From an uncultured Clostridia bacterium (GTDB lineage: Bacteria; Bacillota; Clostridia; TANB77; CAG-508), in NCBI GenBank assembly GCA_947626885.1, contig CANQTX010000001.1, positions 30,741 to 94,740 of the forward strand: a stretch of 64,000 nucleotides of DNA, in the 5' to 3' direction. How positions within the stretch are numbered: the stretch's first letter is position 1; each line of letters starts with the position of its first letter. Shown piece after piece: positions 5,205-53,331 of this stretch. A program made the position numbers and the translations under genes. The notes under the pieces were generated by a model. The model saw nothing but the letters and a program-made list of their open reading frames with translations, was not told the DNA's origin and ran no database searches.

Positions 5205-5249
5205 TGAAAGAAAACAGCTTAAAAATAGTAAACTATCTTTAAGCTGTTT
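5205..5249 (-). terminator. intrinsic terminator after the 5263-6516 gene
   Basis: Minus strand: aaacagcttaaa - 14-nt loop - tttaagctgttt (12-bp perfect stem), followed by a U-rich tail TCTTTC. Confidence 0.6.
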
Positions 5250-5262
5250 CATGATTTTTATA

Positions 5263-6516: not shown

Positions 6517-6608
6517 GTTCTTTTTTATGATATTTTAAAAATATCATATCTCCTTTCTTTATTATTTATATTAGTTACCATGATTATATATTATATCATC
6601 ATGGTATG

Positions 6609-9335: not shown

Positions 9336-9347
9336 TTTTAACTCTCC

Positions 9348-10106: not shown

Positions 10107-10109
10107 CTC

Positions 10110-11156
10110 CTATTCTTTCATATTTTGCTTTCTAAGTTGTCCACAAGCGGCATTTATATCGGTTCCTAATTCTCTTCTAATGGTAGTAATAATACCATGG
10201 TTGTTTAAATAGTCTCTAAATTTTATAATATTCTCATTTGTACTCTTGGTATAAATTCCTTTTTCTATAGGATTAATAGGAATCAAATTGACATGTGCTA
10301 GCATTCCTTTTAGTAAATTCACTAATGCTTTTGCATCTTCTATATTATCATTATTATCTTTTGCTAATGCATATTCAAATGAGATTCTTTTATTAGTTTT
10401 TTTTATATAATACTGGCAAGCTTCCATTAATGTTTCTATTGGATAAGTTTGATTAATCGGCATCATACTACTTCTGATGGAATTACTAGCAGCATGAAGT
10501 GAAATAGAAAGTGTGCATTGTATCTGTTTATCTGCCAATTCATATATTTTAGGAACTATTCCACTCGTAGAAATGCTAATATGCCTTGCTCCAATATGCA
10601 ATCCTTTAGGATGATTGATAATCGCAATGGCTTTCATCAAATGATCAAAATTATCTAACGGTTCTCCAATTCCCATAAAAACAATATTTGAAATAGTAAT
10701 CTTTTCATCTCTCTGGATGGTTAATATCTGCTCTATTATTTCTCCAACTTCCAAATTCCTAACAAAAGGAATCCCTGTAGAAGCACAAAATTTACATCCC
10801 ATTTTGCAACCTATTTGTGATGATACACATATTGTATAACCATGATGGTACTGCATTAATACAGCTTCTATCATATTGTGTTCTTCGTCTTGAACATCTA
10901 ACAAATACTTTTTAGTACCATCAATAGATTCTAATTTATGTACAATTTTAAATAAACCTAATATATAATTTTCTTCTAATCGTCTTCTTAAATCTAAGGA
11001 AAGATTCGTCATTTCTTCAAAACTTGTTACATTATCTTGATATAACCATTTAAATATTTGTTCTGCACGAAAAGGCTTTTCTCCTATAGCCATCATTTCT
11101 TTTTTTAAATCATCTAAATCATAATTTTTGATTGATTTTTTCAAATTTTCCTCCAA
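10110..11156 (-). CDS. rlmN: 23S rRNA (adenine2503-C2)/tRNA methyltransferase, radical SAM
   Basis: 348-aa ORF. FRAEQIFKWLY N-terminus, CX3CX2C radical-SAM motif (GCKMGCKFCAST), and C-terminal DINAACGQL. Conserved rlmN-stp-prkC order. Confidence 0.93.
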   Translation of the reverse strand: MEENLKKSIKNYDLDDLKKEMMAIGEKPFRAEQIFKWLYQDNVTSFEEMTNLSLDLRRRLEENYILGLFKIVHKLESIDGTKKYLLDVQDEEHNMIEAVLMQYHHGYTICVSSQIGCKMGCKFCASTGIPFVRNLEVGEIIEQILTIQRDEKITISNIVFMGIGEPLDNFDHLMKAIAIINHPKGLHIGARHISISTSGIVPKIYELADKQIQCTLSISLHAASNSIRSSMMPINQTYPIETLMEACQYYIKKTNKRISFEYALAKDNNDNIEDAKALVNLLKGMLAHVNLIPINPIEKGIYTKSTNENIIKFRDYLNNHGIITTIRRELGTDINAACGQLRKQNMKE

Positions 11157-11286: not shown

Positions 11287-12558
11287 TTATCCAAACTTAG
11301 TTTCTTCACTAGAATATTCTTCTGGTTTTAAACCAACTCTATTTTTCATATATAAAATTAGTACCATTACTACAAATGTAAACATAATCCCTATAACAAT
11401 AATGGCATTGGCTGTATTGGTTATTCTTAATAAGTATGAACCTATAAAACCAATGAGCACTCTAAATATATTTCTGCTAATGCTATTGACTGCATAAATT
11501 TTAGGTAAAATACTTTCATTTGTAAAATTTTGTAAATATCTTGTTGTTAATACTCCATGTACACCTTTTATAAATTGTAACACTATTAAGGTTAAAACAA
11601 TCATACCAATTGATAAAATCATATTCAATTGTAATATTCCTACCAATCCAATTATCCAAATACATAACAAAGTAATTATTAAAATTGTTTTTAAAGATTT
11701 ATTTTTTAATTTATTATGAAAAACTAATTGCCTTTTAGCTCCTATACCAGATGATATGTCTTTAATGGCAGAAATAATAGCTATAACAGTTGCAACTGCT
11801 CCGAGATCTGTTAACAAACTTGTTATACAAGTATTCATTAAACAAAAGATTCCCCAAATAATACCCGAATATAACAATAAAGCTTTTAATCGGTTGGAAT
11901 GTAAAATGAATTGAAAAGAATACACTAAATCCCTGAAATAGTCTTTTATTTTTATATTTTCAGATTTTGATTTTGCTTGTTTTATCTCCTCAAATCCTAA
12001 CGAAATCATACTAGCCATGATAGATATCAAGAAAGATATTATTATGGGAATATAAGGATTTATTTCATATAATATTCCAGCTGTAATAGATGATATAGCT
12101 GAAAAAAAATAATAGTTTTTTAATCCTTTTCCTTCTATCTTTGAATAAATTTCACTTTTCATTGTTGTTTCTGGTATAGAAACATTTAATAAACTCGTAT
12201 CAGATGTATCTTTTAAAGAAAAACCTATTGCATCAAAGAATTGTGCTAAAATAAGTGTACTGATATTCTGACAATTCAAAATGGTAAAAACAAACGCAGC
12301 TAAAAATAAATTAGCCAAAACCGTACACTTTTTATTTCCTAATTTATCAATCAACATAACAGCAGGAATTTGTAAAATCATCATAAATAATGCATAAACA
12401 GATGAACCTAGTACAATATCTGCAGCTGTTAGTCCTTTTACTTCTGTTAAAAACATAAATTCTATAGCATAATAGAAAATATGATCCATTGATAGCATTC
12501 TATATAATGCATAAATTTTCATATTATGTTTTCTCACCTGTGATACTTCTTCTTTCAT
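11287..12558 (-). CDS. MFS-type transporter
   Basis: 423-aa ORF with about 12 hydrophobic segments arranged 6+6 around a charged central loop (EEIKQAKSKSENIKIKDYF). SD gaggag precedes the ATG. Confidence 0.75.
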   Translation of the reverse strand: MKEEVSQVRKHNMKIYALYRMLSMDHIFYYAIEFMFLTEVKGLTAADIVLGSSVYALFMMILQIPAVMLIDKLGNKKCTVLANLFLAAFVFTILNCQNISTLILAQFFDAIGFSLKDTSDTSLLNVSIPETTMKSEIYSKIEGKGLKNYYFFSAISSITAGILYEINPYIPIIISFLISIMASMISLGFEEIKQAKSKSENIKIKDYFRDLVYSFQFILHSNRLKALLLYSGIIWGIFCLMNTCITSLLTDLGAVATVIAIISAIKDISSGIGAKRQLVFHNKLKNKSLKTILIITLLCIWIIGLVGILQLNMILSIGMIVLTLIVLQFIKGVHGVLTTRYLQNFTNESILPKIYAVNSISRNIFRVLIGFIGSYLLRITNTANAIIVIGIMFTFVVMVLILYMKNRVGLKPEEYSSEETKFG

Positions 12559-12712: not shown

Positions 12713-13600
12713 TCATTTATTGAATAACTTTCTTACAGGAATTTCTATTAGTAATTCCACTTTTCTTATCCCATACAATACCTGAAAAACAATTTCTTGC
12801 CATTGATAAATATGATTATACTGCTTATGATAATACATTTTACTTTGATGAAGTTGTTTTACTTTTTGATAATAATTCATTGCTTTCCCGATGGTTTGAC
12901 TTTCATAATGTATAAATGTTTCACTATTTAAACTGATTATTTTATACTTTTTTTCTTTTAAACGCTTTGCTAAAATATCTTCTTCATAAAATAAAAATAC
13001 GTTTTCATCCAAAAGACCTATTTCTTTTAGCACTTCTGTTTTGATAATAAAAAAAGCTCCTGAAATGGCCTCGACCTCCAATTCTTCTTGTTCAAAGTCT
13101 TCTTTTGTATATTCTCCTTTTCTTAAATATTTATAAAATATTATTTCCAATATTCTTGTAGCATGTATGACATCTAGTCCAAAAGTTCTTATTTTCCATG
13201 CACTTCTTCGAATAGGTTTATTTTCTTTATTAAACATTCTTGGTGCCACCACAGCAACTTCTTGGTAATTTTCAAGTATCTCTAGGCAATGCAAAATAGC
13301 AGTTTCTTCTACTATAATGTCTGGATTCGATATAATCATTGCGTCATATGTTTCTCCTCTTTGTTCTAAATAATGTATACCAAAATTATTGCCATAACCA
13401 TAGCCACCATTTTTTTGAGATTGTATAACAGCTACTTTTTCATTTTCTAGTTGTTTTAATTTTTGAAAAGCACCTGTAGTAGTAGATAAATTATCTACTA
13501 CTACAATTCTATGAATTACATTATACTTTTGTATTTTGTTAACGTACTGTAAAGTTTCTTCCTCATCATTATAATTAACAATAATAGCTGCTACTTTCAT
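12713..13600 (-). CDS. family-2 glycosyltransferase (RfbF/WbbL-like, rhamnosyltransferase-type)
   Basis: 295-aa ORF. AAIIVNYN N-terminus, VVVDNLS, GYGYGNN, and the acceptor-side FLFYEEDIL motif. Confidence 0.88.
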   Translation of the reverse strand: MKVAAIIVNYNDEEETLQYVNKIQKYNVIHRIVVVDNLSTTTGAFQKLKQLENEKVAVIQSQKNGGYGYGNNFGIHYLEQRGETYDAMIISNPDIIVEETAILHCLEILENYQEVAVVAPRMFNKENKPIRRSAWKIRTFGLDVIHATRILEIIFYKYLRKGEYTKEDFEQEELEVEAISGAFFIIKTEVLKEIGLLDENVFLFYEEDILAKRLKEKKYKIISLNSETFIHYESQTIGKAMNYYQKVKQLHQSKMYYHKQYNHIYQWQEIVFQVLYGIRKVELLIEIPVRKLFNK

Positions 13601-13653
13601 GTTATCTCCTATTCAAATTTTTGCTATATGCATTTTTTATAATACTTTTACTT

Positions 13654-15468
13654 TTATTTTTTCTTTAAAATAACACCTGCTTCATTTTGGAATACCAATT
13701 CATATGTATCTGTTGTTTGATAAGTATCTCCTGTAAATAATACAAAATAAGTTTTATCTTTATTTTCCATCCAATCATCAATACTTGTTTCTACTACTGC
13801 TGTTTGTAAATCATTAATAGATTCTCCACCAGATGGTATTCTTGAAATAACATATATCCAAGCTTTACAATTGGTATTCATACCGCCTACTAGCATATTT
13901 TTTAATGTCATTCCTTCAACATCTCCCATAGCTTCTGCTAATTTTACTCTATTGGCATCTACAATACAAGAAGCATTAATATTTTTTACTGTTTGAACAT
14001 TTGTATCATAATAAATTCCTGCCAATTGACCAGCTTTTACATAATCCATTAAACCGGGATATTTCATTTGTACTCTTTCTTCAAATTCCGTAACACTACA
14101 CAATACAATAGCTACAAACATAGTTAAAAAAGATAGCATATATACTTGTAATTCTATATTTTTTGCATCATTACACATAACTTCAATCGCAATATAAACC
14201 AATACAATATACAAAATATAATAAATTTTATAATAATAATAAGATGATACTATTCCAATAGCTAGTCCAATCAATGATAAAAGTGTTTGTCCACCAATCA
14301 TTATCAATGCTATTAACATAGGATGTATTTTTTTTGTTTTGATAGCTCGATAAAGAAATAAAATAACAAATGGTACATAAAACAAGAAATCAACATATAA
14401 TCCTTTATAAATGCCACCTTCAAACCCTATAGCATCTGTTAATTTGTTTTGCGTTTCTACAGTAAAAGTAGGAATCACTAGATATAGAATACCTATCATT
14501 GTTACAACTAATAATAATCCTGTTAAAATCATAGTGTTTTTTTTGAATAATTTATGTGATTTATCTTTATCCAATAGAAAGGCATTTATACAGATAAAAG
14601 CAAACATTGCGGGTACAAATAAACAATAAGAGAAAATAATACCTATTCCTATTATAACTATCAATCCAATCTGTATCCACAAATCTACCTCACCTGTTTG
14701 ATACATTTTTGCTAAATACAACATAGCTGTACAAAAGACAATTGCCACACTTAAATAAGAGAACCCATAAAGTAGACTTGTATAAGGATAAGCAAAAGCA
14801 TACAATATTAAAAATACCATTCCTACACTAAATTGATATTTGGATTGTAATTTATCTATAATTAATAGATAAAAAGCTAATGCATTTAAAGTAAATATAC
14901 CTATTTCAAAATATTTGAATGTGATAAAATCTTTAGCATCTGTCAAAATAGTTTTTACCGTATTCATTAAAATTCCTGTATTGATATAAGCTCCTGGTTG
15001 CATTGTTAGAAAATTATATCCTGTTGTATTATCAATTTTGGAAAGAATCATCATATGATCTGCAAAATTTGTTGCCGCACTGTAATGCATACATCCATCA
15101 ACAGATGCTGTTGCGATGGTTCCATCATAAGGATGATATTGTTTTATACTAGCAAATCCTGCAATTCCTATACAAATAAAAACAGCTATTATATCTCTTT
15201 TTCTTATAAAGTATTTTTGCCTGTCTTTATCTCTAACTATTTTTATGATGCACAATACCATCATTACAACATTAACAATGGATAAACACAGTAAATTAGT
15301 ATAAATACCAATACTACCTAATAATAAACATACTGCAATGTTATACGCTAAATATATTATAATACTAAGAATAATCCATCCTATTAAATTTTGTTTACTT
15401 TCTGATTTCTTCATCCATAAGAAAGCTATGATTAAACTCAAAGTTGTTATCATATACAAAATTCCCAT
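13654..15468 (-). CDS. large polytopic membrane protein, unknown family (candidate GT-C-like transferase/polymerase), paralog of 15543-17633
   Basis: 604-aa ORF with at least 12 hydrophobic helices, then a C-terminal soluble domain of about 140 aa. It shares the MGILY start, SVDGCMHYSAATNFADH, GFSYLSV and FSYCLFVPAMFAF..FKKNT blocks with the next gene. Confidence 0.8.
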   Translation of the reverse strand: MGILYMITTLSLIIAFLWMKKSESKQNLIGWIILSIIIYLAYNIAVCLLLGSIGIYTNLLCLSIVNVVMMVLCIIKIVRDKDRQKYFIRKRDIIAVFICIGIAGFASIKQYHPYDGTIATASVDGCMHYSAATNFADHMMILSKIDNTTGYNFLTMQPGAYINTGILMNTVKTILTDAKDFITFKYFEIGIFTLNALAFYLLIIDKLQSKYQFSVGMVFLILYAFAYPYTSLLYGFSYLSVAIVFCTAMLYLAKMYQTGEVDLWIQIGLIVIIGIGIIFSYCLFVPAMFAFICINAFLLDKDKSHKLFKKNTMILTGLLLVVTMIGILYLVIPTFTVETQNKLTDAIGFEGGIYKGLYVDFLFYVPFVILFLYRAIKTKKIHPMLIALIMIGGQTLLSLIGLAIGIVSSYYYYKIYYILYIVLVYIAIEVMCNDAKNIELQVYMLSFLTMFVAIVLCSVTEFEERVQMKYPGLMDYVKAGQLAGIYYDTNVQTVKNINASCIVDANRVKLAEAMGDVEGMTLKNMLVGGMNTNCKAWIYVISRIPSGGESINDLQTAVVETSIDDWMENKDKTYFVLFTGDTYQTTDTYELVFQNEAGVILKKK

Positions 15469-15542
15469 AACTTTTACCTTTTCTCTTTCTATTTTTCTTA
15501 TTTTTAGATAAATTTACATTGGTTTTTTCACTGCTTATATTA

Positions 15543-17633
15543 TTATACATGATGATTCACTTTAGCAATAAATCCATTTTCATTTTCTAATAAAATTTCA
15601 ATATTTTCATTTTCTCTTACAAGTTCCATTTGTTTTTGATAAAGTTTTAATTTTTCCTGATCCTTTGATACTAATTGCATAATATACTTTTTGCTTGTAT
15701 CTAAAAGTGCATCCTGCACTGTATAAATAGTACTATCTTGCACAAAAATTTCGTATGGTATTGTATCACTCGTAATCTCTGACATAGCCGTTGCCCATAT
15801 TCTTGTATAATACCCATTTGTTATTAATTCTAAGTTATCTGCACTTAAATCTGAAATATGATCTCTTGCATATGTTACTAATTGTATTTCATTGGCATTA
15901 AGATTCTGTTCTAAATCAATTAATTTTCTCTGATCGCAGTTTTCACTATAATACATACCTACTAAATTAGGAAGTGCATGTTTTTGTTCTTCTCCAATGA
16001 CACCTCCAGCTTTTATTAAAACCCAACTACTAACAAATAATCCCCAAATCACAACATAAACCGTTCCCGTTACACGCAATATAGGCATAAACTTAGAGGA
16101 TAGTTTTTCAAACCATTTATCTAGTTTCAGTTTACTAAATATTGCTTTTACATTAATTCTTTTTATCACTTCTCCTAGAGTAATATATAACACTAATATT
16201 ATGTATAAATAAATTTTTACAATAGAAAAAATATCTTTTCCTTTCAATATTAAAATAGGATATAGTAATAATAATAGAATAAAATCTATTCGAAACATTT
16301 TATCATTGACATATTGATTGACAATATCTATTGCCACTATAAAAACAACCATCCAAATAATAAAATACATTTTTAACATATAATATCTTGATACAAATCC
16401 ATATAATCTTCCTAAGCAGATTAGTGCCAAATATCCCATAAGAACCACAGAAAAAACATCCATATAACGTAATTGTTTTTTCTGAATTCTTTTAATTACT
16501 TCTACAGCATAAATTAAAGCAAAAGGAATGTATGGTAAAAAGTTTCGATATTTTTCATTGTAGATTCCTCCCTCTACTTTTAAAGCATCAATTAAATTAG
16601 TTTGTCCTTCAATAAAAAATGTTGGAACAACTAAATATCCAATACCAACAAATGCAATGATCAAAAGCATTATGGTTATGATGCATGTATTTTTCTTAAA
16701 GAATTTACCATACGTTTTTCCCTCTTGTGAAAAATCTTTTAAAAATACATAAATACATATAGCCGCAAAAATAGCTGGCACAAATAAACAATACGAAAAA
16801 GTAAGACCAGTTGCTAACATACCTATTAAGCAAAATATCAATACCGAGTGTACTTTTTCTTCTGTATATAAATACTCTACTACTGTGAGCAACATAGCTA
16901 CCATAGCAATACCAACAGATAAATAAGAGAATCCATATATCCAAGAATTATAAGGATATCCATATATATATAAAGCAAATAAAATAAGACTTGCTACTAA
17001 TCCTCTTTTTGTCTGTATTTTATCCATAAATGCACTGTAAAATGCTAGTCCGCCTAAGAACATAACCATTGTTTCAAAAATTTGATAAATATACACATGA
17101 TGCATATGAGTTATATTATGAATCACATTCATAAAAATGCCATCATTAATATATGCACCTGTTTGCATAACATTAAAATTGAAGAAAGTTTTATCTTCTA
17201 CATGAATAAAAAGCTTTAAATGATCTGCATAATGTTTTGCTGCTCTATAATGAACAGCTGAATCTACTGCATAATGTGTTACATCTCCCTGATATATATA
17301 GATATCTTTTATAAACATTACTGTAAATATTACTAAAATAATACATATACCAACAATATCTATTTTTCTTACAAAATATGCCTGTATTTCTCGAAATTTA
17401 ATACATCGATAGCCTAGTACAATGGAAAAAGCCAAATTTATTCCACATAATAATAGTATATGTGCAGTGATGTTACATAAACCTAACACCATTCCCAAAA
17501 CAATATTATAGGCTAATAAAGAAACTACATAAATCATTAACCATTTTATAAAATTAAGCTTTTTATCTGACTTCTTAAAAGCCATAAAGCTAATTCCTAA
17601 AATTATTAATGTTAAAATATAAAGTATCCCCAT
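15543..17633 (-). CDS. large polytopic membrane protein, unknown family, paralog of 13654-15468
   Basis: 696-aa ORF with the same block order (AVDSAVHYRAAKHYADH, GFSYLSVG, FSYCLFVPAIFAA..FKKNT). It has extra helices and a C-terminal soluble domain of about 170 aa. Confidence 0.8.
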   Translation of the reverse strand: MGILYILTLIILGISFMAFKKSDKKLNFIKWLMIYVVSLLAYNIVLGMVLGLCNITAHILLLCGINLAFSIVLGYRCIKFREIQAYFVRKIDIVGICIILVIFTVMFIKDIYIYQGDVTHYAVDSAVHYRAAKHYADHLKLFIHVEDKTFFNFNVMQTGAYINDGIFMNVIHNITHMHHVYIYQIFETMVMFLGGLAFYSAFMDKIQTKRGLVASLILFALYIYGYPYNSWIYGFSYLSVGIAMVAMLLTVVEYLYTEEKVHSVLIFCLIGMLATGLTFSYCLFVPAIFAAICIYVFLKDFSQEGKTYGKFFKKNTCIITIMLLIIAFVGIGYLVVPTFFIEGQTNLIDALKVEGGIYNEKYRNFLPYIPFALIYAVEVIKRIQKKQLRYMDVFSVVLMGYLALICLGRLYGFVSRYYMLKMYFIIWMVVFIVAIDIVNQYVNDKMFRIDFILLLLLYPILILKGKDIFSIVKIYLYIILVLYITLGEVIKRINVKAIFSKLKLDKWFEKLSSKFMPILRVTGTVYVVIWGLFVSSWVLIKAGGVIGEEQKHALPNLVGMYYSENCDQRKLIDLEQNLNANEIQLVTYARDHISDLSADNLELITNGYYTRIWATAMSEITSDTIPYEIFVQDSTIYTVQDALLDTSKKYIMQLVSKDQEKLKLYQKQMELVRENENIEILLENENGFIAKVNHHV

Positions 17634-17713
17634 AAAATTCTCCTTCTTTTACAACATTTTTATACTCTCTACCATTTTTTATTTTTCATATTTCTTTCAG
17701 TTTTGCTCATATT

Positions 17714-18985
17714 TTATATTTTTAAAGAATGTTCCCTATTTTTAGCGTTGTTTTTTTGTATTTTATGCATAATAACTCTTGTTACAATTCCGTATAAAAC
17801 AAACTGTATAGCCAATGTTACTGTACAAGAAAAAGTAGCTCCATTAATACCAAACTGCTTTACTAATATATTCGATCCTATCCATGCAATTACCATTGAT
17901 ACGATATAAATGACAAATTGTATAAAAGTATGTCTAATCGTTGTTAATACTACCAAATTAATATAAGAAATCGCATAAAAGATGTACGAACCTATAATGA
18001 CGCATAAATTTATTCTGTAAGCTAATAATTCTACACCATAAACTAGTCCTAAAAATTCTGGTCCTAATAAGTAAGCTGCTCCTACTGCAAATACTCCAAA
18101 AGCAATGACGATACATTTAATTTTTAAAGTAATTATATGAAATTGTTTAAAATTTTTTTCCTCATATAATTCTTTTAATTTACTTAAAAATGGCATCACG
18201 ATAAATTGCGTAAATAATGTCATAACAGTTGCCGGCATCATAATATAACCATATATAGCTTGTATGTCTTCTGTTAAAAAACTATCAATTGCATATTTGG
18301 GTGCATTTAAAATATATATTCCTGCAAATGAATTAGCAAATACAAAAAACTCATTTTTTAAAATAGATAACACATTTTCTCGATTAATCTTTTCTGTTTT
18401 ATCTATTAAAATACGACCAATCAATAAATAATCAAATTCAATAAGTACCAATGCATTAACAATAATTAATGCTAGACATGCATAAATTAGGTTATGTGTG
18501 AACCCATCAACAACTAAGAATAACACCACGCCTACCAATCCTTTTATCGTTAAAGATTGACCTGCTTTGTACAAAATACCATTCTTTTGCATAATACCAT
18601 ATAAAATATCTGAAAATGCCTCTATTCCCTTAAAAATGGCTAGTAATATGAATACTTCTGTTTTAAAAGGTGTATATTGTTTTATACTTAAAAATACTAT
18701 TGCACCAATAAGCATAATGCCACAAGTAAGTGCTCTATTGCAAATATAATCTTTATCTGTTATTTTTTCTTCTATATCTGTTACCTGACAAAGTCTTCCT
18801 GAATATAGTGCCAATGTATATAGGATGGTAGAAGTAGCATAAGCAATGGAAAAAATTCCTGCTATCTCTAACCCATTTATTCTTGTAACAATGATTAAGA
18901 AAAATAAAGAATTAAAAGAGTTCCATCCTGTACCCAGTGTATTCCATATAAAATTCTTTAAAAATAATTTTTTATCATTATCCAT
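17714..18985 (-). CDS. MOP/Wzx-type oligosaccharide flippase-like membrane protein
   Basis: 423-aa ORF with about 12 TM segments. The N-terminus FLKNFIWNTLGTGWNSFNSLFFLIIVTRINGLEIAGIFSIAYA follows the Wzx/RfbX pattern. Confidence 0.7.
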   Translation of the reverse strand: MDNDKKLFLKNFIWNTLGTGWNSFNSLFFLIIVTRINGLEIAGIFSIAYATSTILYTLALYSGRLCQVTDIEEKITDKDYICNRALTCGIMLIGAIVFLSIKQYTPFKTEVFILLAIFKGIEAFSDILYGIMQKNGILYKAGQSLTIKGLVGVVLFLVVDGFTHNLIYACLALIIVNALVLIEFDYLLIGRILIDKTEKINRENVLSILKNEFFVFANSFAGIYILNAPKYAIDSFLTEDIQAIYGYIMMPATVMTLFTQFIVMPFLSKLKELYEEKNFKQFHIITLKIKCIVIAFGVFAVGAAYLLGPEFLGLVYGVELLAYRINLCVIIGSYIFYAISYINLVVLTTIRHTFIQFVIYIVSMVIAWIGSNILVKQFGINGATFSCTVTLAIQFVLYGIVTRVIMHKIQKNNAKNREHSLKI

Positions 18986-19016
18986 GAATGATTTCTACTC
19001 CTAATTCATTTATCAT

Positions 19017-19925
19017 TTATAAAATTCCTATCAAAAAAATCACTCGTAACATTAAATCATCTATTGTTCTTCTGCGCAATTTTTTAGGATAACACGCTTT
19101 CTGAACTGCTGTAGAAAAGTGATATGTTTCATTAGAAAATAAATCAATTATTTTCTGATTTTCTGGACTTAATTTTTCATAATATATTGTTTTAAAATTA
19201 ATCATCTGTTTTTTAATATCTTTTATGCCATGATTACATAATAAATTTTTCACTCTCCATAATAATAATTTTATATATCCTTGCCCTTCTGAAGTAGCAT
19301 TAGTCTTCATTCTTCTATATTTTACAGTTGTTACATTATCATATGCTACATTTCCCATACCTATACAAATCAAATATGTCCACCAATCATGAAAAAAGCA
19401 GGTCTTTGGAGGATTTTCTACAATTAAATCTCTTGTCTTTTGATTAATTGTCATAGTCATTCCTTGTGTCACACATTCAAATAATGCATTTCTAAAAGAA
19501 AACTTTCGATTCGTTTCACCATATCCTAATAATTCCATATTTTCATTATAATAATCGGAATTCCCAAAAGCCATATTGGGTTTATTATTGTCTAACTGAT
19601 TTAATGCGTGTACTGCCAATGCAATTTTATTTTCAAGCCAAATATCATCTTGGTCTGCATAAGCATAATAATCCGCTTTTGCTATTTTTAATAATGTAAA
19701 AAAACTTTTAATAAATCCTATATTTTTTCCTTTTATTAAATGAATATTATCATACTTTTTTTGATAGTCCTCTATCATACTAACTGTATCATCTGTAGAA
19801 CCATCATCTCTTACAATTACTTCAATATTTTTATATGTTTGACATAATATAGAATCCATTTGTTCTTTTATAAATTTTGCTCCATTATAAGTAGACATTA
19901 AAATAGCTACTTTTTTTTCTTCCAT
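19017..19925 (-). CDS. family-2 glycosyltransferase
   Basis: 302-aa ORF with VAILMSTYNGAKFIKEQMDSILCQTY, VRDDGSTDDT and ADQDDIW (DXD) motifs. Confidence 0.9.
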   Translation of the reverse strand: MEEKKVAILMSTYNGAKFIKEQMDSILCQTYKNIEVIVRDDGSTDDTVSMIEDYQKKYDNIHLIKGKNIGFIKSFFTLLKIAKADYYAYADQDDIWLENKIALAVHALNQLDNNKPNMAFGNSDYYNENMELLGYGETNRKFSFRNALFECVTQGMTMTINQKTRDLIVENPPKTCFFHDWWTYLICIGMGNVAYDNVTTVKYRRMKTNATSEGQGYIKLLLWRVKNLLCNHGIKDIKKQMINFKTIYYEKLSPENQKIIDLFSNETYHFSTAVQKACYPKKLRRRTIDDLMLRVIFLIGIL

Positions 19926-19986
19926 TTATGTTTCCTTCCCTATCCTCTTTACCAAGTATAGTTACTATGAGTATTGATTTGCCATG

Positions 19987-22113
19987 TTAATTTACACGAA
20001 AAATATACATGCCATCTTCGTAGTACACTTGCTCAAATGTTTTATCAAAATTTTTTTGATTTATATCTTCTTTTGAAAGAATATACTGTACATTCAATTT
20101 TTCTAAATCTTTATAATTTAAGTGAATAGCAATATTATCTGCATATAATAATTCTACTGTTGACTCTGTATCTACTATATCAAAATTAATATGTGCATAT
20201 CGATTATATGTTATCTCATTTTCTTTGGCTTTATCTCCTAAAATTGTTTCAAACATTGCCAAATTAGGATATACATTCGTTGAATTTAATGTACGAATAC
20301 CATTAGCTACTGAATAATCATTTATATACCATCCAGTATCATTAACAACCCAAATTGCTTCTGGATTTTCTTCTCTTATTTCTTGCATCTTTATAGCCAC
20401 TGGTTTCGTATAGAATATATCTGTTGTTCGAATCACAGGATTTACTCTAAGCCCTGTAATCAAAGCAATGGCTATCAATCCATATATTGTATAATTCTTT
20501 ATTTTTTCATTTTGCATATTCAAAATGCCAAAGATAGCCACTAAAAAGATTTCTCCTCCTGCTAATATCTTAAACTTATCAATATATGGGAACCCACACG
20601 TTTTTTTTGCTTGATAAATAATATATATGGTAGCAAAACCTGCTAAATAATAAGTTAATTTCTTGGGAATCCATTTATCATCTAATTGAATGCTTCCCAT
20701 AAGGTAAATTAACATATAAATATTTAATGTTCCTAACGCTATTGTAGCTCTTGGCGCTGTGGCATTAGACATTAATGTTATTTTTGCCAATATCTCTGGA
20801 AATCCATATTTACACCATATTGTTAAAAAAGCACTAGCAACCAATGTTGGTAACCAAAAAGATAAATTTTTTTTATTACGAATCACATACACTAGTCCTA
20901 ATAAAATTGGAATCGGGAAAAAAGATAACATACTAGCATATTCACATGGATTAGGAAAATCTTCAAATGTAAAGAAGATATTATAAAAATACGCATATAA
21001 AGTAAAGGTTCCGCCTCCTGTTTCACATCTATCTCCCGGATAAGCAGTATGACTAACAGCTGCAATAGTATCTTTTGATAACATATACCATCTTCCCAAT
21101 AATAAAACAATGCAAAGAATGGTTAAAATGATAACTGCTATGTCATGTTTTGATATGCGATATCCTTTTTGAAAATTTTGTATTATCATCCAAATAGCAA
21201 TCGCTAAAAATACATAAGCAAATGAGACTTGCCATGCAGGATATAAAACAAATACATAGGCTAAGCATGAAGATATTAGTCCTATAGCACATACATATTT
21301 TTTCCATTTTTTATCTGTATTCATAAAAGTATTTACTAATACCAGTATAATTTGTCCCCAAATTAAAGTATCCATGCAATACCACCATTGCACCGCTGCT
21401 GAAAAAGTAATCACAATGGCACCACATAATGAAAGTTTTTTGTTTTTGTTCGTTAAGATGAGACATAATTCATATGCTCCTAATAGCATAGCGGTTATTC
21501 TTGCATACCAATAGAAACTGAATCCGGCATCATTTCCTAATAACAAGAATGCTAATTGAAAAGGTTTTCCTAACATCAAAATATCATATACAGGACTATT
21601 TACCAACGTAAACATATCTGTTGTTGTACCTCTTAAGGCATTATTAAAATACGAAAATGCGTGATTTCCTTGCGACTGAGACAGTATGTAAGTAGTAGAA
21701 GTAGCCCATTCATCTGTACGAATCATTCTTGCTTTACCTAATAACGTATGATATTTTCTATCATCACAGTTGGGTTGAATTTGACTATTAAAATTAACGA
21801 TAGAAGATCCAGAATATTTAAATATCATAACAAACAACAAAAAGGCACAAGCGATTTTGTACCTATGTTTATGAATCCATTCATACATATCTTTTAATTT
21901 AAAAATAAAATGTAAACCTATAAAAATGAAAATACATGCTACCAACATAATTCGATTTTTAGAAATAAATTCAGGATACCATCTTCTAAAAATGGTATAT
22001 TCACATATGGTCGCCATTACTATTGACATTAAGAACAATAATATCAATTTTATTGTTACAAAATTCTCTTTATTTATTACTTTCTCAAAATATGCTTTTC
22101 CTTTATCTAACAT
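19987..22113 (-). CDS. very large polytopic membrane protein, unknown family (candidate GT-C-like), paralog of 62085-64000
   Basis: 708-aa ORF with about 14 hydrophobic helices and a C-terminal soluble domain of about 150 aa. It shares RTDEW/HSDEY, YPGDRCETGG/YPGKRIETGG, FFPIPILLGL/IFPIPMLIGL and NRYAHI/NRYAHV blocks with the last gene of the window. Confidence 0.8.
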   Translation of the reverse strand: MLDKGKAYFEKVINKENFVTIKLILLFLMSIVMATICEYTIFRRWYPEFISKNRIMLVACIFIFIGLHFIFKLKDMYEWIHKHRYKIACAFLLFVMIFKYSGSSIVNFNSQIQPNCDDRKYHTLLGKARMIRTDEWATSTTYILSQSQGNHAFSYFNNALRGTTTDMFTLVNSPVYDILMLGKPFQLAFLLLGNDAGFSFYWYARITAMLLGAYELCLILTNKNKKLSLCGAIVITFSAAVQWWYCMDTLIWGQIILVLVNTFMNTDKKWKKYVCAIGLISSCLAYVFVLYPAWQVSFAYVFLAIAIWMIIQNFQKGYRISKHDIAVIILTILCIVLLLGRWYMLSKDTIAAVSHTAYPGDRCETGGGTFTLYAYFYNIFFTFEDFPNPCEYASMLSFFPIPILLGLVYVIRNKKNLSFWLPTLVASAFLTIWCKYGFPEILAKITLMSNATAPRATIALGTLNIYMLIYLMGSIQLDDKWIPKKLTYYLAGFATIYIIYQAKKTCGFPYIDKFKILAGGEIFLVAIFGILNMQNEKIKNYTIYGLIAIALITGLRVNPVIRTTDIFYTKPVAIKMQEIREENPEAIWVVNDTGWYINDYSVANGIRTLNSTNVYPNLAMFETILGDKAKENEITYNRYAHINFDIVDTESTVELLYADNIAIHLNYKDLEKLNVQYILSKEDINQKNFDKTFEQVYYEDGMYIFRVN

Positions 22114-22180
22114 TTCTATACTCCATTTTCGAATTTTTCATCATTTCTTACCGTATTTTTCTAATATTTTATTAATATTG

Positions 22181-23221
22181 TTACCATTTCACTTCAATTT
22201 TTAAAACATCTACTAAAAATCGATTCACCCAAATATAGATTATCGGTAAACGCAACTTAAATAATAGATGCACTCCCCAAATACAAATAAATTTTAATCC
22301 CTTTTTAAAACAATGTGATATTTTAAAAAATTGACTATTTCTCCATTCAGCAAAATTCTCATCTAAATATTGCACCACATCTTTTATAACAAGTGACATT
22401 TTTACAGACTTATCATATGAAACCATAAATACCCATGAAATAGCAAGATGTAAGAAAGCCATGGTTGCTAAAACTTCTTTATATGCTTCATATTTACCAA
22501 TTGCTTTAGCATGTTCTTTTGTCACCAATAAATATTTTTTTAAATTTTCAATATCTTGTAAGTTTAAAGAATGAATTTGCGAACTAGAACGCAAATAATA
22601 GTGATACAATACATCTGGTATAAAAGTTAATTTTTGAACACCATCCATATAACTATGAATGAGAAATAATGTATCATTACACCCTCTAAATGGTAAAAAT
22701 TCTAAATGTTTCACTTTTTCTAGTCGATAAATTTTATTCCATAAAGAAGGATTTGCATATACAATAAAATCATCATTCCAATCCACCTGCTTATTGATGG
22801 TACCATATTGTGTCATTTCGGTTGCTACAATTTTTCCTGTATCTAAATCTATTCGATCATATCCACAAAAAGCAATATCTGCATCATTTTCCTTTGCTGC
22901 TTGATACAGTTTCTCTGCCCATGTAACTTCGGGAACATCATCACTATCAATAAACCCTACATATTCTCCTGTGGCATGCTTTAAACCATAAGTACGTGCA
23001 GACCATTCTCCTCCATTTTCTTTATGAAATGTTTTTACTTTATGGGGATATTTTTTCTTATAATCTTCAATAATCTTTGGTGCTGAATCTTTAGAACCAT
23101 CATCAACACAAAGAATTTCTATTTCCTCCAATGTTTGATGAACCAATGCCTCTAAACATCTTGGCACAAATTCTTCTAAATTGTATATTGGCACTACAAT
23201 TGATACTTTTATTGGGTTCAT
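22181..23221 (-). CDS. family-2 glycosyltransferase
   Basis: 346-aa ORF with VSIVVPIYNLEEFVPRCLEALVHQT, CVDDGSKD and FIDSDD motifs. Confidence 0.9.
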   Translation of the reverse strand: MNPIKVSIVVPIYNLEEFVPRCLEALVHQTLEEIEILCVDDGSKDSAPKIIEDYKKKYPHKVKTFHKENGGEWSARTYGLKHATGEYVGFIDSDDVPEVTWAEKLYQAAKENDADIAFCGYDRIDLDTGKIVATEMTQYGTINKQVDWNDDFIVYANPSLWNKIYRLEKVKHLEFLPFRGCNDTLFLIHSYMDGVQKLTFIPDVLYHYYLRSSSQIHSLNLQDIENLKKYLLVTKEHAKAIGKYEAYKEVLATMAFLHLAISWVFMVSYDKSVKMSLVIKDVVQYLDENFAEWRNSQFFKISHCFKKGLKFICIWGVHLLFKLRLPIIYIWVNRFLVDVLKIEVKW

Positions 23222-23224
23222 GAT

Positions 23225-24160
23225 TTATTCCTTTCTGGCTTTTCGTTCTCTTTCGCAATCAATTAATCTCATTTCAAAGGTTTGTTTTGAATTTTTTATA
23301 ATATTATCTAAAGTCATTCCTGAAAAGAAAGATTGTACAGCACATAAGAAAAATAATACACTAATTACCAATGTTGGTATTTTAACAACACCTCTATTCA
23401 GAAAATCAATAAATACTGGTACAAAAAAAGCTAGTCCAATTATTGTTAAAATAAAAGCTAATAAAGTAAAGAATGCCATTGGTTTATAATTTTTATAGAA
23501 TCCAAAAATAGTTTTTAAAACTTTAATACCATCTGGAATTGTGTTCAATTTTGAAGGACTATCTGCCGGCCTATCTCTATAATCAATAATTATATTTTTT
23601 ACTTTCATATTTTTATCTAAACAATGTATTGTCATTTCGGTTTCTAATTCAAACCCTTTAGACATAACAGGAAATGTTTTTACAAATTTATAACTAAAAG
23701 CTCTTAGTCCTGTCATCACATCACGAATATCACTTTTATAAATTCTATTAATTAACGCTCTAACTGTAACATTTCCTATATTATGAAAAGGTCTTTTATT
23801 CTCTGTAAAATAAGTGGAAGAAAGTCTATCTCCTATTACCATATCTACATTTTCTTCTAAAACAGCTTTCACAAATTCTTTAGCAACCTCTGCAGGATAA
23901 GTGTCATCTCCATCTACCATAATATAACATTCAGCATCAATCTCTCTGAACATGGTTCTGATAACATTTCCTTTTCCTTGTCTTGTTTCATATCTTACAA
24001 TTGCTCCTGCCTCTTTGGCAATTTTATCTGTTCCATCTTTAGAATTATTATCATACACATATATAACTGCCTCTGGTAATTCTCTTCTAAAATCTTCTAC
24101 TACCTTTCTTATGGTTTTTGCTTCATTATAACATGGTACTAAGACTGCTACTTTGTCCAT
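23225..24160 (-). CDS. polyprenyl-phosphate glycosyltransferase (GtrB/CsbB/DPM1-like)
   Basis: 311-aa ORF. GT2 core (AVLVPCYNEAKTI, YDNNSKDGT, VDGDDTY) followed by two C-terminal TM helices. This is the architecture of Und-P-sugar synthases. Confidence 0.85.
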   Translation of the reverse strand: MDKVAVLVPCYNEAKTIRKVVEDFRRELPEAVIYVYDNNSKDGTDKIAKEAGAIVRYETRQGKGNVIRTMFREIDAECYIMVDGDDTYPAEVAKEFVKAVLEENVDMVIGDRLSSTYFTENKRPFHNIGNVTVRALINRIYKSDIRDVMTGLRAFSYKFVKTFPVMSKGFELETEMTIHCLDKNMKVKNIIIDYRDRPADSPSKLNTIPDGIKVLKTIFGFYKNYKPMAFFTLLAFILTIIGLAFFVPVFIDFLNRGVVKIPTLVISVLFFLCAVQSFFSGMTLDNIIKNSKQTFEMRLIDCERERKARKE

Positions 24161-24287
24161 ATTCTTGTCTCCTTTTTCTTAACTTTCTTTCATTTTCTCT
24201 CTCTCTATTTTATCCCTTGTTATTTTTTTACAGTCAAACTAGATAACTGTTTTCTTTTACTTTTGTTGTTATGTATTTTATGTTTTA

Positions 24288-24779
24288 TCACAATGATTCT
24301 TTTTTAAAAATAAATAATTTACTAAATACAAAATTTAATATAATAACAACTATATTAGCAATCACTTTCATAATAACATCATTAAAATGAATTATAACAG
24401 CAAAATTCATAAGTCCTATACTAATAGCTTCCGTCACCAATCGACAGCTCACAAAAGATATGATTTCTTTTATAAACGCCTTATGCGTATTCGTTTCACT
24501 TTGAAAAACACATATTTTATTTGTAAAATAAGCAAAAACAACTGCTGCTATAAAAGCAATGATTTCACTCATATTAACTTTTAAAGATTCATTAAATCCT
24601 CTAAATAATATTTGACTACAAAAAATATAAGCTAAAATGTTAACCACAGTAGATAAGGCACCAAAAACAAGATATCGCATTCCCTCTAAATGATTTTCAT
24701 ATATATCTGCTAATTTTCCTAATTTAATTTTCCTTGCTATTTCTAAAAAGAATTTTTCAATTGCTTCCCAGACCTTCAT
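24288..24779 (-). CDS. GtrA-family small membrane protein (putative lipid-linked sugar translocase)
   Basis: 163-aa ORF with 4 TM helices and the YLVFGALSTVVN...FTNKICVF pattern. It is adjacent to the GtrB-like gene. Confidence 0.8.
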   Translation of the reverse strand: MKVWEAIEKFFLEIARKIKLGKLADIYENHLEGMRYLVFGALSTVVNILAYIFCSQILFRGFNESLKVNMSEIIAFIAAVVFAYFTNKICVFQSETNTHKAFIKEIISFVSCRLVTEAISIGLMNFAVIIHFNDVIMKVIANIVVIILNFVFSKLFIFKKESL

Positions 24780-24956: not shown

Positions 24957-26831
24957 CTACACTTTTTTGGTTGCAATATCAAAATGACAAGTATCTCTCC
25001 TAAAATTAGGATTATAATATGGATCTGATACAGATAACGTTTCTTTCCATATTTCTTGAAATTTGTGGCATTCTTCTTGAAATCTTGCTTCTTGCTTTTT
25101 AGAATATTCATAGCCTCTGGTTTTGGATTCATAATGAATTAATTCAACATAAGGATTATATACAATTCGATAGCCTTTTTCAAGGATTTTTAGACAAAAA
25201 TCTACATCATTCAAAGCGATTTTAAAATTTTTCTCGTCCATAAAACCCACTTCTTCATAAATTTCTTTTCTCGTAAACAAACAAGCTCCTGTAACAGCTG
25301 ATACATTACATGTAGCGGCTTCTCTTCCAAAATAAGCATGCTTACCATATGGTAAATTAACAAGAAGATTGGCTGCTATTCCTGATAAACCATAGGCAAT
25401 TCCTGCATGCTGTATGGTTTTATCTTTATAATATAATCTAGCTCCTACAGCTCCAATTTCAGGATTTTGCGCATATCCTATTAAAATCTCTAGCCAATGC
25501 GGTGTTAAAAGCTTTGTATCATTATTTAATTGTAAAATAAAATCACCATCTGCTTGTTTAACGCCAAAATTAATAATAGCAGAATAGTTAAATTCTGGTT
25601 TATCAGTATTTTGAGATATTTCCTTATTGAAATCATCTTGTTTATCATAAGACATACCTACATAAGAAGGATAATATAAAATTTTTATTTTTTCATTTTG
25701 AGAAAGTGTTTTATAATAATCAAATGTTTCTCTTTTTTCACTATTATTTTCTATTATCAAAACTTCATAGTTTTCATAAGTTGTCAATTTTAAAATAGAA
25801 TCTACACAAGTTTTTAGTAATGCAATATTATCTTTATTAGGAATTAAAATAGATACTTTGGGTGTTCCTTCTATTTCAAAGTCAATTTTATAAATGCCAG
25901 GAACATCTTGTCCCAAAGCAACTTTTCCTTTTTTATTTATTCTTTTTAAATGTTCTTCTACCGCTTGTCTTCCTACTTCACAAGCATAGGGCTTACTATC
26001 TATATGGTGAGCTGTAGAATTTCGATGCATTCTCCAATGATATAAAATTTTGGGAATATGGACTATTTTTTGAGCTTGTTCCGTAGCTCGCAAAATAAAA
26101 TCAAAATCTTGTGCACCATCAAATGCACTTCTCAGCATGCCTACTATATCTATTAATGTTCTCTTTACAACAACAAAATGTGTAATATAATTATGACATG
26201 CTAATGTTTCTGGCGCATAGTCTGGCTTAAAATACGGTTCAAAACGATTCCCTTGTTCATCTATCTTATCCTCATCTGTATAAATAAAATCTACCTCTTT
26301 ATTTTGATGAATACATTTTACAATTTCAAATAATGCTTCTGGAGACAATACATCATCATGATCTAAAAAACCAATATATTCTCCTGTTGCCATGAGAATA
26401 GCAGCATTGGTATTATCTGATATTCCTTTATTCTCCTTTAATAATTGATATTTTATTCTTTTATCTTTTTCATAATATTTTCTAAAAATGGCATTTTCTT
26501 TTTCACTACCATCTGCCAAACATAGTTCCCAATTGGTATAAGTCTGATTTTGTAAAGAAACCACTAATTCCTTAAAAAATTTCTCTGGTGTATGATACAT
26601 AGGAACAACAACACTAATTTTCGGCATAATTTCCAATATGCTTTCTCTTTGTACTTTTAACTCCTCTTCTGTTGGATCATTATATTGCATCCATATTGCA
26701 TATTGTTCCTGATTCGTTAAACGATTTTCTTTTATATGTAATATTCTTTTCAAACATTTTTTTAATGTTATCCAAAAACCATATCTTTGCAAATAATATA
26801 TGACTTTATTAACATTATCTTTTATATTCAT
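24957..26831 (-). CDS. bifunctional-type glycosyltransferase with two GT2 domains (paralog 1 of 3)
   Basis: 624-aa ORF. First GT2 domain: KISVVVPMYHTPEKFF, LADGS, FLDHDD. Second GT2 domain: KVSILIPNKDN, IIENNS, QLNNDT, ALNDVDFCLK. Confidence 0.9.
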   Translation of the reverse strand: MNIKDNVNKVIYYLQRYGFWITLKKCLKRILHIKENRLTNQEQYAIWMQYNDPTEEELKVQRESILEIMPKISVVVPMYHTPEKFFKELVVSLQNQTYTNWELCLADGSEKENAIFRKYYEKDKRIKYQLLKENKGISDNTNAAILMATGEYIGFLDHDDVLSPEALFEIVKCIHQNKEVDFIYTDEDKIDEQGNRFEPYFKPDYAPETLACHNYITHFVVVKRTLIDIVGMLRSAFDGAQDFDFILRATEQAQKIVHIPKILYHWRMHRNSTAHHIDSKPYACEVGRQAVEEHLKRINKKGKVALGQDVPGIYKIDFEIEGTPKVSILIPNKDNIALLKTCVDSILKLTTYENYEVLIIENNSEKRETFDYYKTLSQNEKIKILYYPSYVGMSYDKQDDFNKEISQNTDKPEFNYSAIINFGVKQADGDFILQLNNDTKLLTPHWLEILIGYAQNPEIGAVGARLYYKDKTIQHAGIAYGLSGIAANLLVNLPYGKHAYFGREAATCNVSAVTGACLFTRKEIYEEVGFMDEKNFKIALNDVDFCLKILEKGYRIVYNPYVELIHYESKTRGYEYSKKQEARFQEECHKFQEIWKETLSVSDPYYNPNFRRDTCHFDIATKKV

Positions 26832-26908
26832 AAAAATTAATCACTTTCTTTATTACTTGGATTCTCTAATAAATTAACGCTTCTCTATAAAACCTTGCTT
26901 TATACTTG

Positions 26909-28819: not shown

Positions 28820-28890
28820 GTATACTCCTTTTATAAGGTTTTATTGCATTACACAATACTTTCAATACTTTCATTACTTTATTTACTATA

Positions 28891-32443: not shown

Positions 32444-32501
32444 GAAAAATTCCTTTCTTTTAGACACATTCTTACATTCTTTACATCTTCTATTGATATC
32501 T

Positions 32502-33797: not shown

Positions 33798-33819
33798 ATT
33801 ATATCCTCTCTGTTCCTTT

Positions 33820-33950
33820 TGTCCTTTTAGGAACGTTAGTTTTTGGACATTTATGACCCAATAGGGACACATGTTATTGGATGAGAAAAAATTTTATATT
33901 CGTATAAAATTGGACTAAAATGTCCAAAAACTAACGTCCCTAAAAGGACA
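33820..33950 (-). repeat. 131-nt element: 32-nt inverted repeat arms (33820-33851 and 33919-33950) around a 67-nt loop
   Basis: 31 of 32 positions are complementary. The single exception is a G-U wobble on the minus (sense) transcript but an A-C mismatch on the plus strand. It overlaps the stop codon of the GT2 gene and ends 22 nt before the wzt start codon (about 9 nt before its SD). Confidence 0.85.
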
Positions 33951-53310: not shown

Positions 53311-53331
53311 ATACTTTTTTATTATACTCGA

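Follow-up and report, generated by a model that had tools for sequence, protein, structure and literature searches.

A stretch of 64,000 nucleotides from an uncultured Clostridia bacterium (assembly GCA_947626885.1, contig CANQTX010000001.1, positions 30,741 to 94,740; hereafter, the window) was annotated by comparing its open reading frames (ORFs) with Pfam and NCBIfam. The window has a G+C content of about 28% and is one very large cell-envelope glycan locus between housekeeping genes; all genes discussed are on the minus strand. The analysis centered on the cassette at 12713-24779, which encodes a lipid-sugar donor system (a GtrB-like synthase and a GtrA-family protein) and polytopic membrane proteins. 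Five polytopic proteins of the window are labeled A (13654-15468), B (15543-17633), C (19987-22113), D (43403-44449) and E (62085-64000). An earlier sequence-only reading of this DNA had proposed that the one donor system feeds all five, as extracytoplasmic transferases of new families; every ORF was found exactly where that reading had placed it. Transmembrane (TM) helices were assigned from hydropathy, and the outside location of loops from charge distribution (positive-inside) and the helices of structural models. Homologous loci fetched from other genomes and metagenomes carry L-numbers.

In transcription order, the locus comprises the gene of E; rmlD, rmlA, rmlC and rmlB; genes of three ChW-repeat proteins; a cluster with a phosphoglycosyltransferase (PGT, Bac_transf) and a Polysacc_synt_3 flippase (Wzx1); GT61, TagD-like and TagF-like genes; an ABC-transporter pathway; and the GtrA-GtrB cassette, whose own flippase is called Wzx2. 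The left flank contains ackA/pta, rpe and an rlmN-PP2C-PASTA kinase operon.

The 311-aa product of 23225-24160 was assigned as a GtrB/AglJ-type polyprenyl-phosphate hexose synthase from its NCBIfam match, its match in the Protein Data Bank (PDB) and its TM helices. It consists of a GT2 domain and two C-terminal hydrophobic helices (approximately residues 233-251 and 257-282), an architecture found in no other protein of the window. The best curated match was AglJ (TIGR04182) over the full length (E 7e-66); its score of 222 bits does not reach the equivalog cut-off of 325 bits. Other matches were the NCBIfam models of dolichyl-phosphate hexose transferase and PpgS and, by sequence, the dolichol-phosphate mannose synthase 5mlz (E 1e-8). 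The small membrane protein encoded at 24288-24779 belongs to the GtrA family (Pfam GtrA_DPMS_TM, E 8e-18) and is a putative flippase of sugars linked to undecaprenyl phosphate (Und-P); in most related loci its gene is directly upstream of the GtrB-like gene. These matches uphold the naming of the two products as GtrB and GtrA.

Both donor genes varied among related loci. In L019 (4791-6848), a natural GtrA_DPMS_TM-DUF2142 fusion of 685 aa, that is, a flippase-type module joined to a GT-C-type module, lies directly upstream of the GtrB orthologue. Long apparent GtrA matches obtained in homologous loci with an iterated GtrA profile were DUF2142 proteins, the profile having been contaminated via a natural GtrA-DUF2142 fusion. 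In eight related loci (L027, L028, L029, L030, L035, L042, L046 and L050), the GtrB-like gene, located at about 6-9 kb of the locus, appears as two overlapping ORFs, one of about 210 aa (the GT2 core) and one of about 121 aa (the TM helices), with the same break point; the explanation may be a frameshift or pseudogene that these loci have in common, a genuine split, or recoding. In L104, a 139-aa EamA-like small membrane protein (1406-1825) takes the place of GtrA, possibly a non-orthologous flippase replacement reminiscent of ArnE/F.

From Pfam, AlphaFold2 and Foldseek, C was predicted to be a membrane glycosyltransferase of GT-C fold in which a DUF7657 TM core is joined to a soluble DUF7654 domain at the C-terminus. 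Its AlphaFold2 model, from a 47-sequence alignment, had a pLDDT of 84.3 and a pTM of 0.85. Foldseek searches of the models of C and B were run against 350,000 PDB chains, and for C the top matches were ArnT (5ezm and 5f15; E 2e-4, probability 1.0), AftA and AftD. Two more AftD (mutant) entries had probabilities of 0.75-0.82, and all later matches were transporters (probability about 0.1). In the model, three helices are followed by a long loop (residues 98-183), outside the membrane by charge distribution, which carries a short helix beginning with D134-E135 (window 21709-21714). Across 40 DUF7657 members from Clostridia, Lachnospiraceae, Selenomonadaceae, Megasphaera, Elusimicrobia, Gastranaerophilales and Brachyspira, D134 was kept in 40/40 and E135 in 39/40; YPAWQ, YPGxR and NRYxH (in the C-terminal DUF7654 domain) were conserved as well as these. 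At higher rank, DUF7657 was found in Clostridia, Negativicutes, Elusimicrobia, Gastranaerophilales and Brachyspira.

E is a second DUF7657+DUF7654 protein (Pfam E 2.5e-84 and 2.5e-29) and a paralogue of C (35% identity, E 2e-118), with its DE motif at 63846-63851. Its reading frame is open to base 64000, and about 90 N-terminal residues are cut off by the right window end. It lies 38 kb from the GtrB cassette, beside the rml genes, with its upstream neighborhood beyond the window, and no orthologue was present among the fetched loci.

Linkage of DUF7657 genes to lipid-sugar synthases was followed in 32 distant loci, those with a DUF7657 protein no more than 43% identical to C. In eight of them (L058, L060, L061, L073, L075, L076, L078 and L081), the DUF7657 gene was immediately adjoined by a GtrB orthologue, and in five others the neighbor was a TM-less GT2 of 232-242 aa with PpgS, AglJ and dolichyl-phosphate hexose transferase as best curated matches. 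The DUF7657-GtrB pair occurs alone in distant taxa, without A/B or Wzx2. This linkage to GtrB- and PpgS-like synthases, recurrent in unrelated genomes, would fit the polyprenyl-phosphate-linked sugar donors that GT-C enzymes use outside the membrane. Second copies of B-like and C-like genes were found in L108 (10001-15912) and L110 (4778-10802), beside a DUF6056 polytopic protein and next to ackA; no GtrB gene is nearby, which indicates that such enzymes can be encoded away from a donor synthase.

With 37% identity over 425 aa (E 2e-85), A and B are paralogous members of a family that has no Pfam model and comprises 715 representative clusters; ten distant members had no Pfam match at all. The AlphaFold2 model of B, from a 56-sequence alignment, had a pLDDT of 86.9 and a pTM of 0.88, and its best 11 Foldseek matches were all GT-C enzymes (DPY19 7zlg, STT3 8b6l_I, AglB 3waj/3wak, AftA, Pmt4, PglB and Pmt1/2), with probabilities of 0.89-1.0. 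B was therefore predicted to be a membrane glycosyltransferase with a GT-C fold, and A to share this fold by homology. Four helices precede a large loop in the model of B, placed outside the membrane by its charge distribution, and D124 and H128 are on the loop's first helix. Both residues were invariant in 62 diverse A/B members sharing only 20-30% identity; they correspond to window positions 17262-17264 and 17250-17252 in B, and 15097-15099 and 15085-15087 in A. A follows B in tandem in about 30 related loci. Distant A/B members in L117 and L118 lie beside a PpgS/GacI-like short GT2, a Wzx2-family flippase and a DUF2142 protein. L120 is an independent example: rmlACB is followed there by a GT2 that ends in two TM helices, then by genes of a PMT_2 protein and of two unknown proteins with 10 TM helices each, and finally by a pair of A/B genes in a row.

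None of A to E matched PMT, PMT_2, YfhO, DUF2142, ArnT-type or any other named GT-C Pfam family, even at E values up to 10, and none of the ORFs of at least 120 aa in the window matched a named GT-C Pfam family, in agreement with what had been concluded from the letters. No relevant match was returned when A, B, C and D were compared, by sequence and by profile, with all PDB chains. The view that the polytopic proteins are of GT-C type is borne out by the predicted folds and Foldseek matches for C and B and by clear paralogy for E and A; neither the C nor the B family had a predicted fold unrelated to GT-C structures. A conserved acidic residue in the first large outside loop, anticipated earlier as an acidic or aromatic motif, was found in the C family (D134/E135), in the A/B family (D124, with H128) and in the DUF6077 family of D. 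Each candidate family has many conserved homologues, which indicates that the genes are real. The five candidates are indeed all polytopic, but they form three families (A/B, C/E and D), not five, and only A/B is new to Pfam, C/E (DUF7657+DUF7654) and D (DUF6077) being covered already by domains of unknown function.

Profile comparisons with hhalign revealed no relationship among the three families with narrow alignments, and links appeared only with broader ones. With these, the DUF7657 TM core aligned with A/B (probability 84%, E 8e-6, 236 columns), and the pDE..H outside loop of DUF2142 with the tD..vHY loop of A/B (probability 71%). DUF6077 aligned with the first 340 residues of A/B over 315 collinear columns (probability 83.5%, E 8e-6), which places the invariant D135 of DUF6077 on D124 of A/B. 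These remote links agree with the folds, and are suggestive rather than decisive.

D (348 aa; DUF6077, Pfam E 8e-101) lies wholly within the membrane, and the loop that follows its fourth helix carries an HVDDDD motif; in the DUF6077 alignment D135 was invariant, and D133 and D136 were kept at 90% or more. A C-terminal soluble domain had been attributed to most of the candidates; D has none of its own, and it is the next gene (42577-43359) that supplies three TM helices and a soluble domain of about 130 aa. This partner of about 260 aa has no Pfam family and sub-threshold matches only. A homologue of it directly followed every DUF6077 gene examined (window 42577-44449; two tandem pairs in L085, 8249-11824; L086, 10001-11917; L087, 10001-11987), and in L086 and L087 the pair comes directly after a Bac_transf initiator. 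The two genes look like an obligate module, possibly a split GT-C-like enzyme; DUF6077 and its partner would then be the catalytic and the acceptor-binding subunit, respectively. It has been speculated in a review that GT-C enzymes of small size may depend on a separate protein to bind the acceptor (PMC8035078). Homology of the partner to the C-terminus of A/B, which would have made the pair a split A/B-like protein, was dropped (probability 9%, over the last 45 residues only).

D lies 19 kb from the GtrB cassette, in the separate PGT/Wzx cluster, which comprises a PglF-like dehydratase, an aminotransferase, the Bac_transf initiator (47487-48173), five GT2, D, the 260-aa protein and Wzx1. The position of DUF6077 relatives directly after PGT genes indicates substrates linked to undecaprenyl diphosphate (Und-PP). 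As the pair follows Bac_transf genes and D is the only polytopic protein of its cluster besides Wzx1, D and its partner were read as a polymerase or ligase of an Und-PP pathway. Judged by sequence, D probably has a GT-C-like catalytic core, and D plus its partner is probably a two-subunit GT-C-like enzyme of the PGT/Wzx1 cluster and not a client of GtrB.

The remaining genes of the cassette encode three cytoplasmic GT2 and Wzx2. The GT2 have 346 aa (22181-23221; Pfam Glycos_transf_2, E 1.5e-36), 302 aa (19017-19925; Glycos_transf_2, E 6e-24) and 295 aa (12713-13600, the last gene of the cassette; Pfam GT2, E 7.5e-9). The last of these was weakly rhamnosyltransferase-like (NCBIfam rhamnosyltransferase subfamily, E 3e-11, below the cut-off). 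Wzx2 (17714-18985) is a divergent Wzx-type (MOP) flippase with about 12-14 TM helices and a weak Polysacc_synt match (E 0.002); 7/12 members of its family matched Polysacc_synt, with a best E of 1e-10. Genes of the Wzx2 family recur beside PpgS/GacI-like short GT2, which resemble Und-P-sugar synthases, in L053, L055, L056, L117 and L118.

The order GtrA-GtrB-GT2-C-GT2-Wzx-B-A-GT2-rlmN was syntenic in dozens of metagenome-assembled genomes of gut Clostridia, with protein identities of 55-80%, the closest relatives being labeled Candidatus Scatovivens or uncultured Clostridia. C is encoded one gene downstream of the synthase, and this clustering of GtrA, synthase and GT-C gene is conserved. Wzx2, the three GT2, C, B and A are next to the Wzm/Wzt pathway (24957-35781) in a locus with rml genes for dTDP-rhamnose synthesis (58513-61981). 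Besides Wzm and Wzt, the latter with a Wzt_C domain, the ABC-transporter-dependent pathway encodes a GT2, three double-GT2 enzymes and an unknown 417-aa protein, and its product is the likely acceptor polymer of the cassette. The most telling locus, L104, from a related organism, has the same cassette, with a GtrB 79% identical, all three GT2 (68% identity for the 346-aa enzyme) and Wzx2 kept, and with rlmN-PP2C-PASTA kinase after it. In this cassette C has given way to a DUF2142 protein, a non-orthologous replacement, and A/B is represented by a single gene. Lactococcal WpsJ and WpsI, the GT-C enzymes for which attachment and polymerization of the polysaccharide pellicle (PSP; PMC12599335, PMC10821137) have been proposed, belong to DUF2142. 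L104 also has a GH25 muramidase and a ChW-like 171-aa ORF (5236-6706) between a GT2 gene and Wzx2.

We consider it somewhat better than even, at a probability of about 0.55, that 12713-24779 is a conserved, PSP-like module for extracytoplasmic glycosylation, adding side chains, of a rhamnose-containing wall polysaccharide locus. The predicted folds, motifs, synteny and family relations are observations, from which we infer donor, acceptor and division of labor as follows. The GtrB/AglJ-like enzyme would load a hexose onto Und-P at the cytoplasmic face, GtrA would flip the Und-P-sugar to the outside, and C would transfer the sugar to the wall polymer, with the invariant Asp134-Glu135 pair providing the catalytic base. 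Alongside this, a lipid-linked primer is probably elongated by the three cytoplasmic GT2, giving an oligosaccharide that the divergent Wzx-type flippase would export. B and A (Asp124, His128) would then polymerize the oligosaccharide, attach it to the ABC-pathway backbone, or both, mirroring the step of WpsG, WpsI and WpsJ in the lactococcal PSP pathway. The best-supported picture is a composite: the GtrB-like enzyme, GtrA and C are taken as a classical three-component branch, since the GtrB-DUF7657 pair recurs, and the GT2, Wzx2, B and A as a PSP-like branch onto the ABC backbone. The oligosaccharide may be primed by the same Und-P-hexose, as in lactococci and the archaeal AglJ pathway, and B and A may each take a role of its own.

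The scheme is a known one, multi-component extracytoplasmic glycosylation as in the Gtr, CsbB/YfhO, GacIJKL and Wps/Csd systems, with GT-C proteins of other sequence families. The likeness to the lactococcal PSP system (WpsA/B, WpsC-F, WpsG, WpsI/WpsH, WpsJ; PMC10821137, PMC12599335) lies in the rhamnose-polymer locus with an ABC-transporter backbone pathway, in a separate module with a polyprenyl-monophosphate sugar synthase, cytoplasmic glycosyltransferases, a Wzx-type flippase and more than one outside GT-C, and in the WpsJ/WpsI family protein that L104 carries in place of C. It differs in that the synthase is of GtrB/AglJ type with its own TM helices, whereas WpsA is a TM-less GT2 with the small activator WpsB; in the presence of GtrA; in the GT-C proteins, which are of DUF7657 and a Pfam-less family, with no DUF2142 in the window; in the lack of a recognizable WpsH-like co-polymerase; and in the host, which is one of the Clostridia and not of the Lactobacillales. 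Synthase, flippase and GT-C genes are also clustered in Gtr-type systems (GtrA/GtrB/Gtr* of Shigella phages, CsbB/GtcA/YfhO, GtlA/GtlB, and CsdAB/CD/EF with CflA; PMC8035078, PMC11127046), and the DUF7657-GtrB pair behaves like a classical pair in turning up on its own in distant phyla. Unlike those systems, this one has a GT-C that is none of YfhO, PMT_2 and Glucos_trans_II; in C, the canonical first helix is preceded by two additional TM helices at the N-terminus, and the conserved DUF7654 domain is present at the C-terminus; and the cassette adds GT2 genes, a Wzx gene and two more GT-C genes.

In the GacI/GacJ/GacK/GacL system, a Wzx-type flippase moves Und-P-sugar to a GT-C enzyme that decorates a rhamnan with the GlcNAc of the group A carbohydrate, and distant A/B and DUF7657 loci carry a GacI-like short GT2 and Wzx2. 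GacJ has no recognized counterpart here, and A, B and C match no PMT_2 model, whereas GacL is annotated as PMT_2 (PMC8035078). Solved GT-C enzymes (ArnT 5ezm, AftA 8if8, AftD 6w98, DPY19 7zlg, STT3/AglB/PglB, Pmt4) resemble these proteins in the predicted overall fold and in having, within the first extracytoplasmic loop, a short helix that bears an acidic residue, but sequence similarity is not detectable, there is no WWDxG motif, and the catalytic loop comes after the third (C) or fourth (B, D) TM helix and not after the first as in ArnT and PglB. Among curated families, the synthase is closest to AglJ of the Haloferax Agl pathway (AglJ, AglG/I/E, AglR, AglB/AglS). In that pathway, AglJ begins an oligosaccharide on polyprenyl monophosphate, after which GT2 enzymes extend it, a flippase exports it and a GT-C enzyme transfers it. 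Differences are the bacterial wall-polysaccharide context, the AglJ score below cut-off and the absence of an AglB/STT3 homologue. GT-C enzymes without a Pfam domain beside GtrB-type genes were already known (GltB, YkoS, CsdB; PMC8035078), and new GT-C families are still being founded (GT136; PMC11127046).

Several results weigh against the PSP-like scheme. The synthase has DGDDT (residues 83-87) where DxDxQ, proposed as a hallmark of polyprenyl-phosphate GT2 (PMC10821137), would be expected, and the motif is only partly kept. About half of the distant DUF7657 loci had no synthase within 10 kb, and the GT2 may act either on the Und-P-hexose or on the backbone polymer. No WpsB/GacJ-like activator and no WpsH-like co-polymerase was recognized in the cassette, and the partner of D had no significant similarity to the C-terminus of A/B. 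Foldseek TM-scores were only 0.33-0.45, with E values of 1e-4 to 1e-2 and a high root-mean-square deviation, and the alignments behind the models of C and B were shallow (47 and 56 sequences). Modest TM-scores are expected between GT-C families.

An unlikely alternative is that B and A, as well as D, act as polymerases or ligases of Wzy-like kind on Und-PP-linked repeat units and that C alone uses the GtrB product. The units would be started elsewhere, either by the Bac_transf enzyme (47487-48173) or by a homologue of TagO/WecA encoded beyond the window, with the Wzx-type protein flipping them. Wzx flippases classically handle Und-PP-linked units, the cassette has no second initiator, the DUF7657-GtrB pair is found alone in distant taxa, and DUF6077 genes come after PGT genes, all of which would fit. 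However, Wzx2-family genes recur beside PpgS/GacI-like Und-P-sugar synthases and not beside PGT genes, and the structural neighbors of B are GT-C enzymes using Und-P-, dolichyl phosphate (Dol-P)- or Dol-PP-linked donors, with no WaaL, Wzy or SEDS among its listed Foldseek matches and no WaaL or Wzy among those of C. Pfam gave no match to Wzy_C, O-antigen_lig or O-ag_pol for D, A or B.

Also doubtful is the original proposal that the single GtrB/GtrA Und-P-monosaccharide is the common donor of all five enzymes, each acting at a different position or on a different polymer. The window does contain only one gene of GtrB architecture, one GT-A serving two GT-C enzymes (GttA of Listeria) and a flippase common to three systems (CflA) are known (PMC8035078), and L120 has one GtrB-type gene and then five polytopic genes. 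The proposal was not supported for D, which is in the PGT/Wzx cluster with relatives that follow PGT genes, or for E, which is 38 kb away and whose donor gene could lie upstream, outside the window. It also leaves unexplained the three interleaved GT2 and the conserved Wzx-type flippase, which the earlier reading had passed over; interleaved as they are with A, B and C, these fit an oligosaccharide side-chain pathway better than five single-sugar transfers.

Protein glycosylation was considered in two forms. As a bacterial counterpart of the archaeal Agl pathway, in which an AglJ-like enzyme would begin an oligosaccharide on undecaprenyl monophosphate, GT2 would lengthen it, the Wzx-type protein would move it across the membrane, and B and/or A would be a new class of oligosaccharyltransferase acting on ChW-type proteins, with DUF6077 and its partner separately a split enzyme, it is improbable, and still more so in the form in which the AglJ-like synthase and the GT2 build a lipid-linked glycan that B and/or A move to surface proteins such as the ChW proteins. 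The best neighbors of B (DPY19, STT3, AglB, Pmt4 and PglB) do glycosylate proteins, the closest curated family of the synthase comes from archaeal S-layer N-glycosylation, the polysaccharide locus itself contains the genes of three ChW-repeat surface proteins (51402-58207, Pfam), and protein O-glycosylation by GtrB plus GT-C exists in streptococci (PMC11092751). Opposed to this, the sequences of A and B have no oligosaccharyltransferase motif of WWDxG type, the ChW proteins and the PASTA kinase have no Ser/Thr-rich disordered tracts, the cassette sits inside a rhamnose/ABC-transporter polysaccharide locus, and L104 substitutes DUF2142, a family tied to polysaccharide side chains. That the polytopic proteins are transporters or scaffolds, their GT-C resemblance being an artefact of comparing large helical bundles, would agree with the low TM-scores and high deviations but is very improbable given the Foldseek probabilities (1.0, or 0.89-1.0 for B, for GT-C against about 0.1 for transporters, in two independent models), the invariant acidic and His residues in an outside loop, the linkage of the genes to lipid-sugar synthases and the remote profile link to the DUF2142 motif.

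Further observations concern the neighboring genes. The wall polymer made at the locus may be a ligand of the ChW repeats. The 417-aa soluble protein of the ABC pathway (31214-32467), whose start is overlapped by the 3' end of the upstream 778-aa double-GT2 gene, has no Pfam match; it adjoins the Wzt ATPase with its Wzt_C glycan-binding domain and, by this position, would fit an enzyme that terminates or caps the chains of the pathway. The rlmN-PP2C phosphatase-PASTA kinase operon (7293-11156) directly borders the glycan locus, and the junction is kept in L002-L004 and L104. An MFS gene at 11287-12558 was found only in the window, which indicates an insertion relative to those loci. Acetate kinase genes are in tandem, one at 868-2070 and a paralogue 56% identical to it, whose start is at 798 and which extends past the left window end; a further B-like gene at this end, as in L108, was ruled out because the ORF is the acetate kinase fragment. 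Between the endonuclease III and rpe genes, 5263-6516 encodes a 417-aa protein with about six TM helices and no Pfam match, and L104 has at the matching position an unrelated 584-aa, 11-TM protein.

The analysis gives a first functional handle on three uncharacterized membrane-protein families: DUF7657/DUF7654, DUF6077 with its obligate partner, and the Pfam-less A/B family. A full-text search found no paper on DUF7657, DUF7654 or DUF6077. An annotation as probable glycosyltransferases of GT-C fold, with candidate catalytic residues named, is now possible for all three families, and each could become the founder of a new CAZy family after its characterization, as GT136 did. They are useful for annotation and a good target for enzymology, while the mechanism is known and would not surprise a specialist. 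Surface glycans of this kind are typically phage receptors and immune determinants. Uncultured low-GC gut Clostridia are indicated to build decorated rhamnose-type wall polysaccharides by the dual-pathway logic of lactococci and streptococci, with other outside enzymes.

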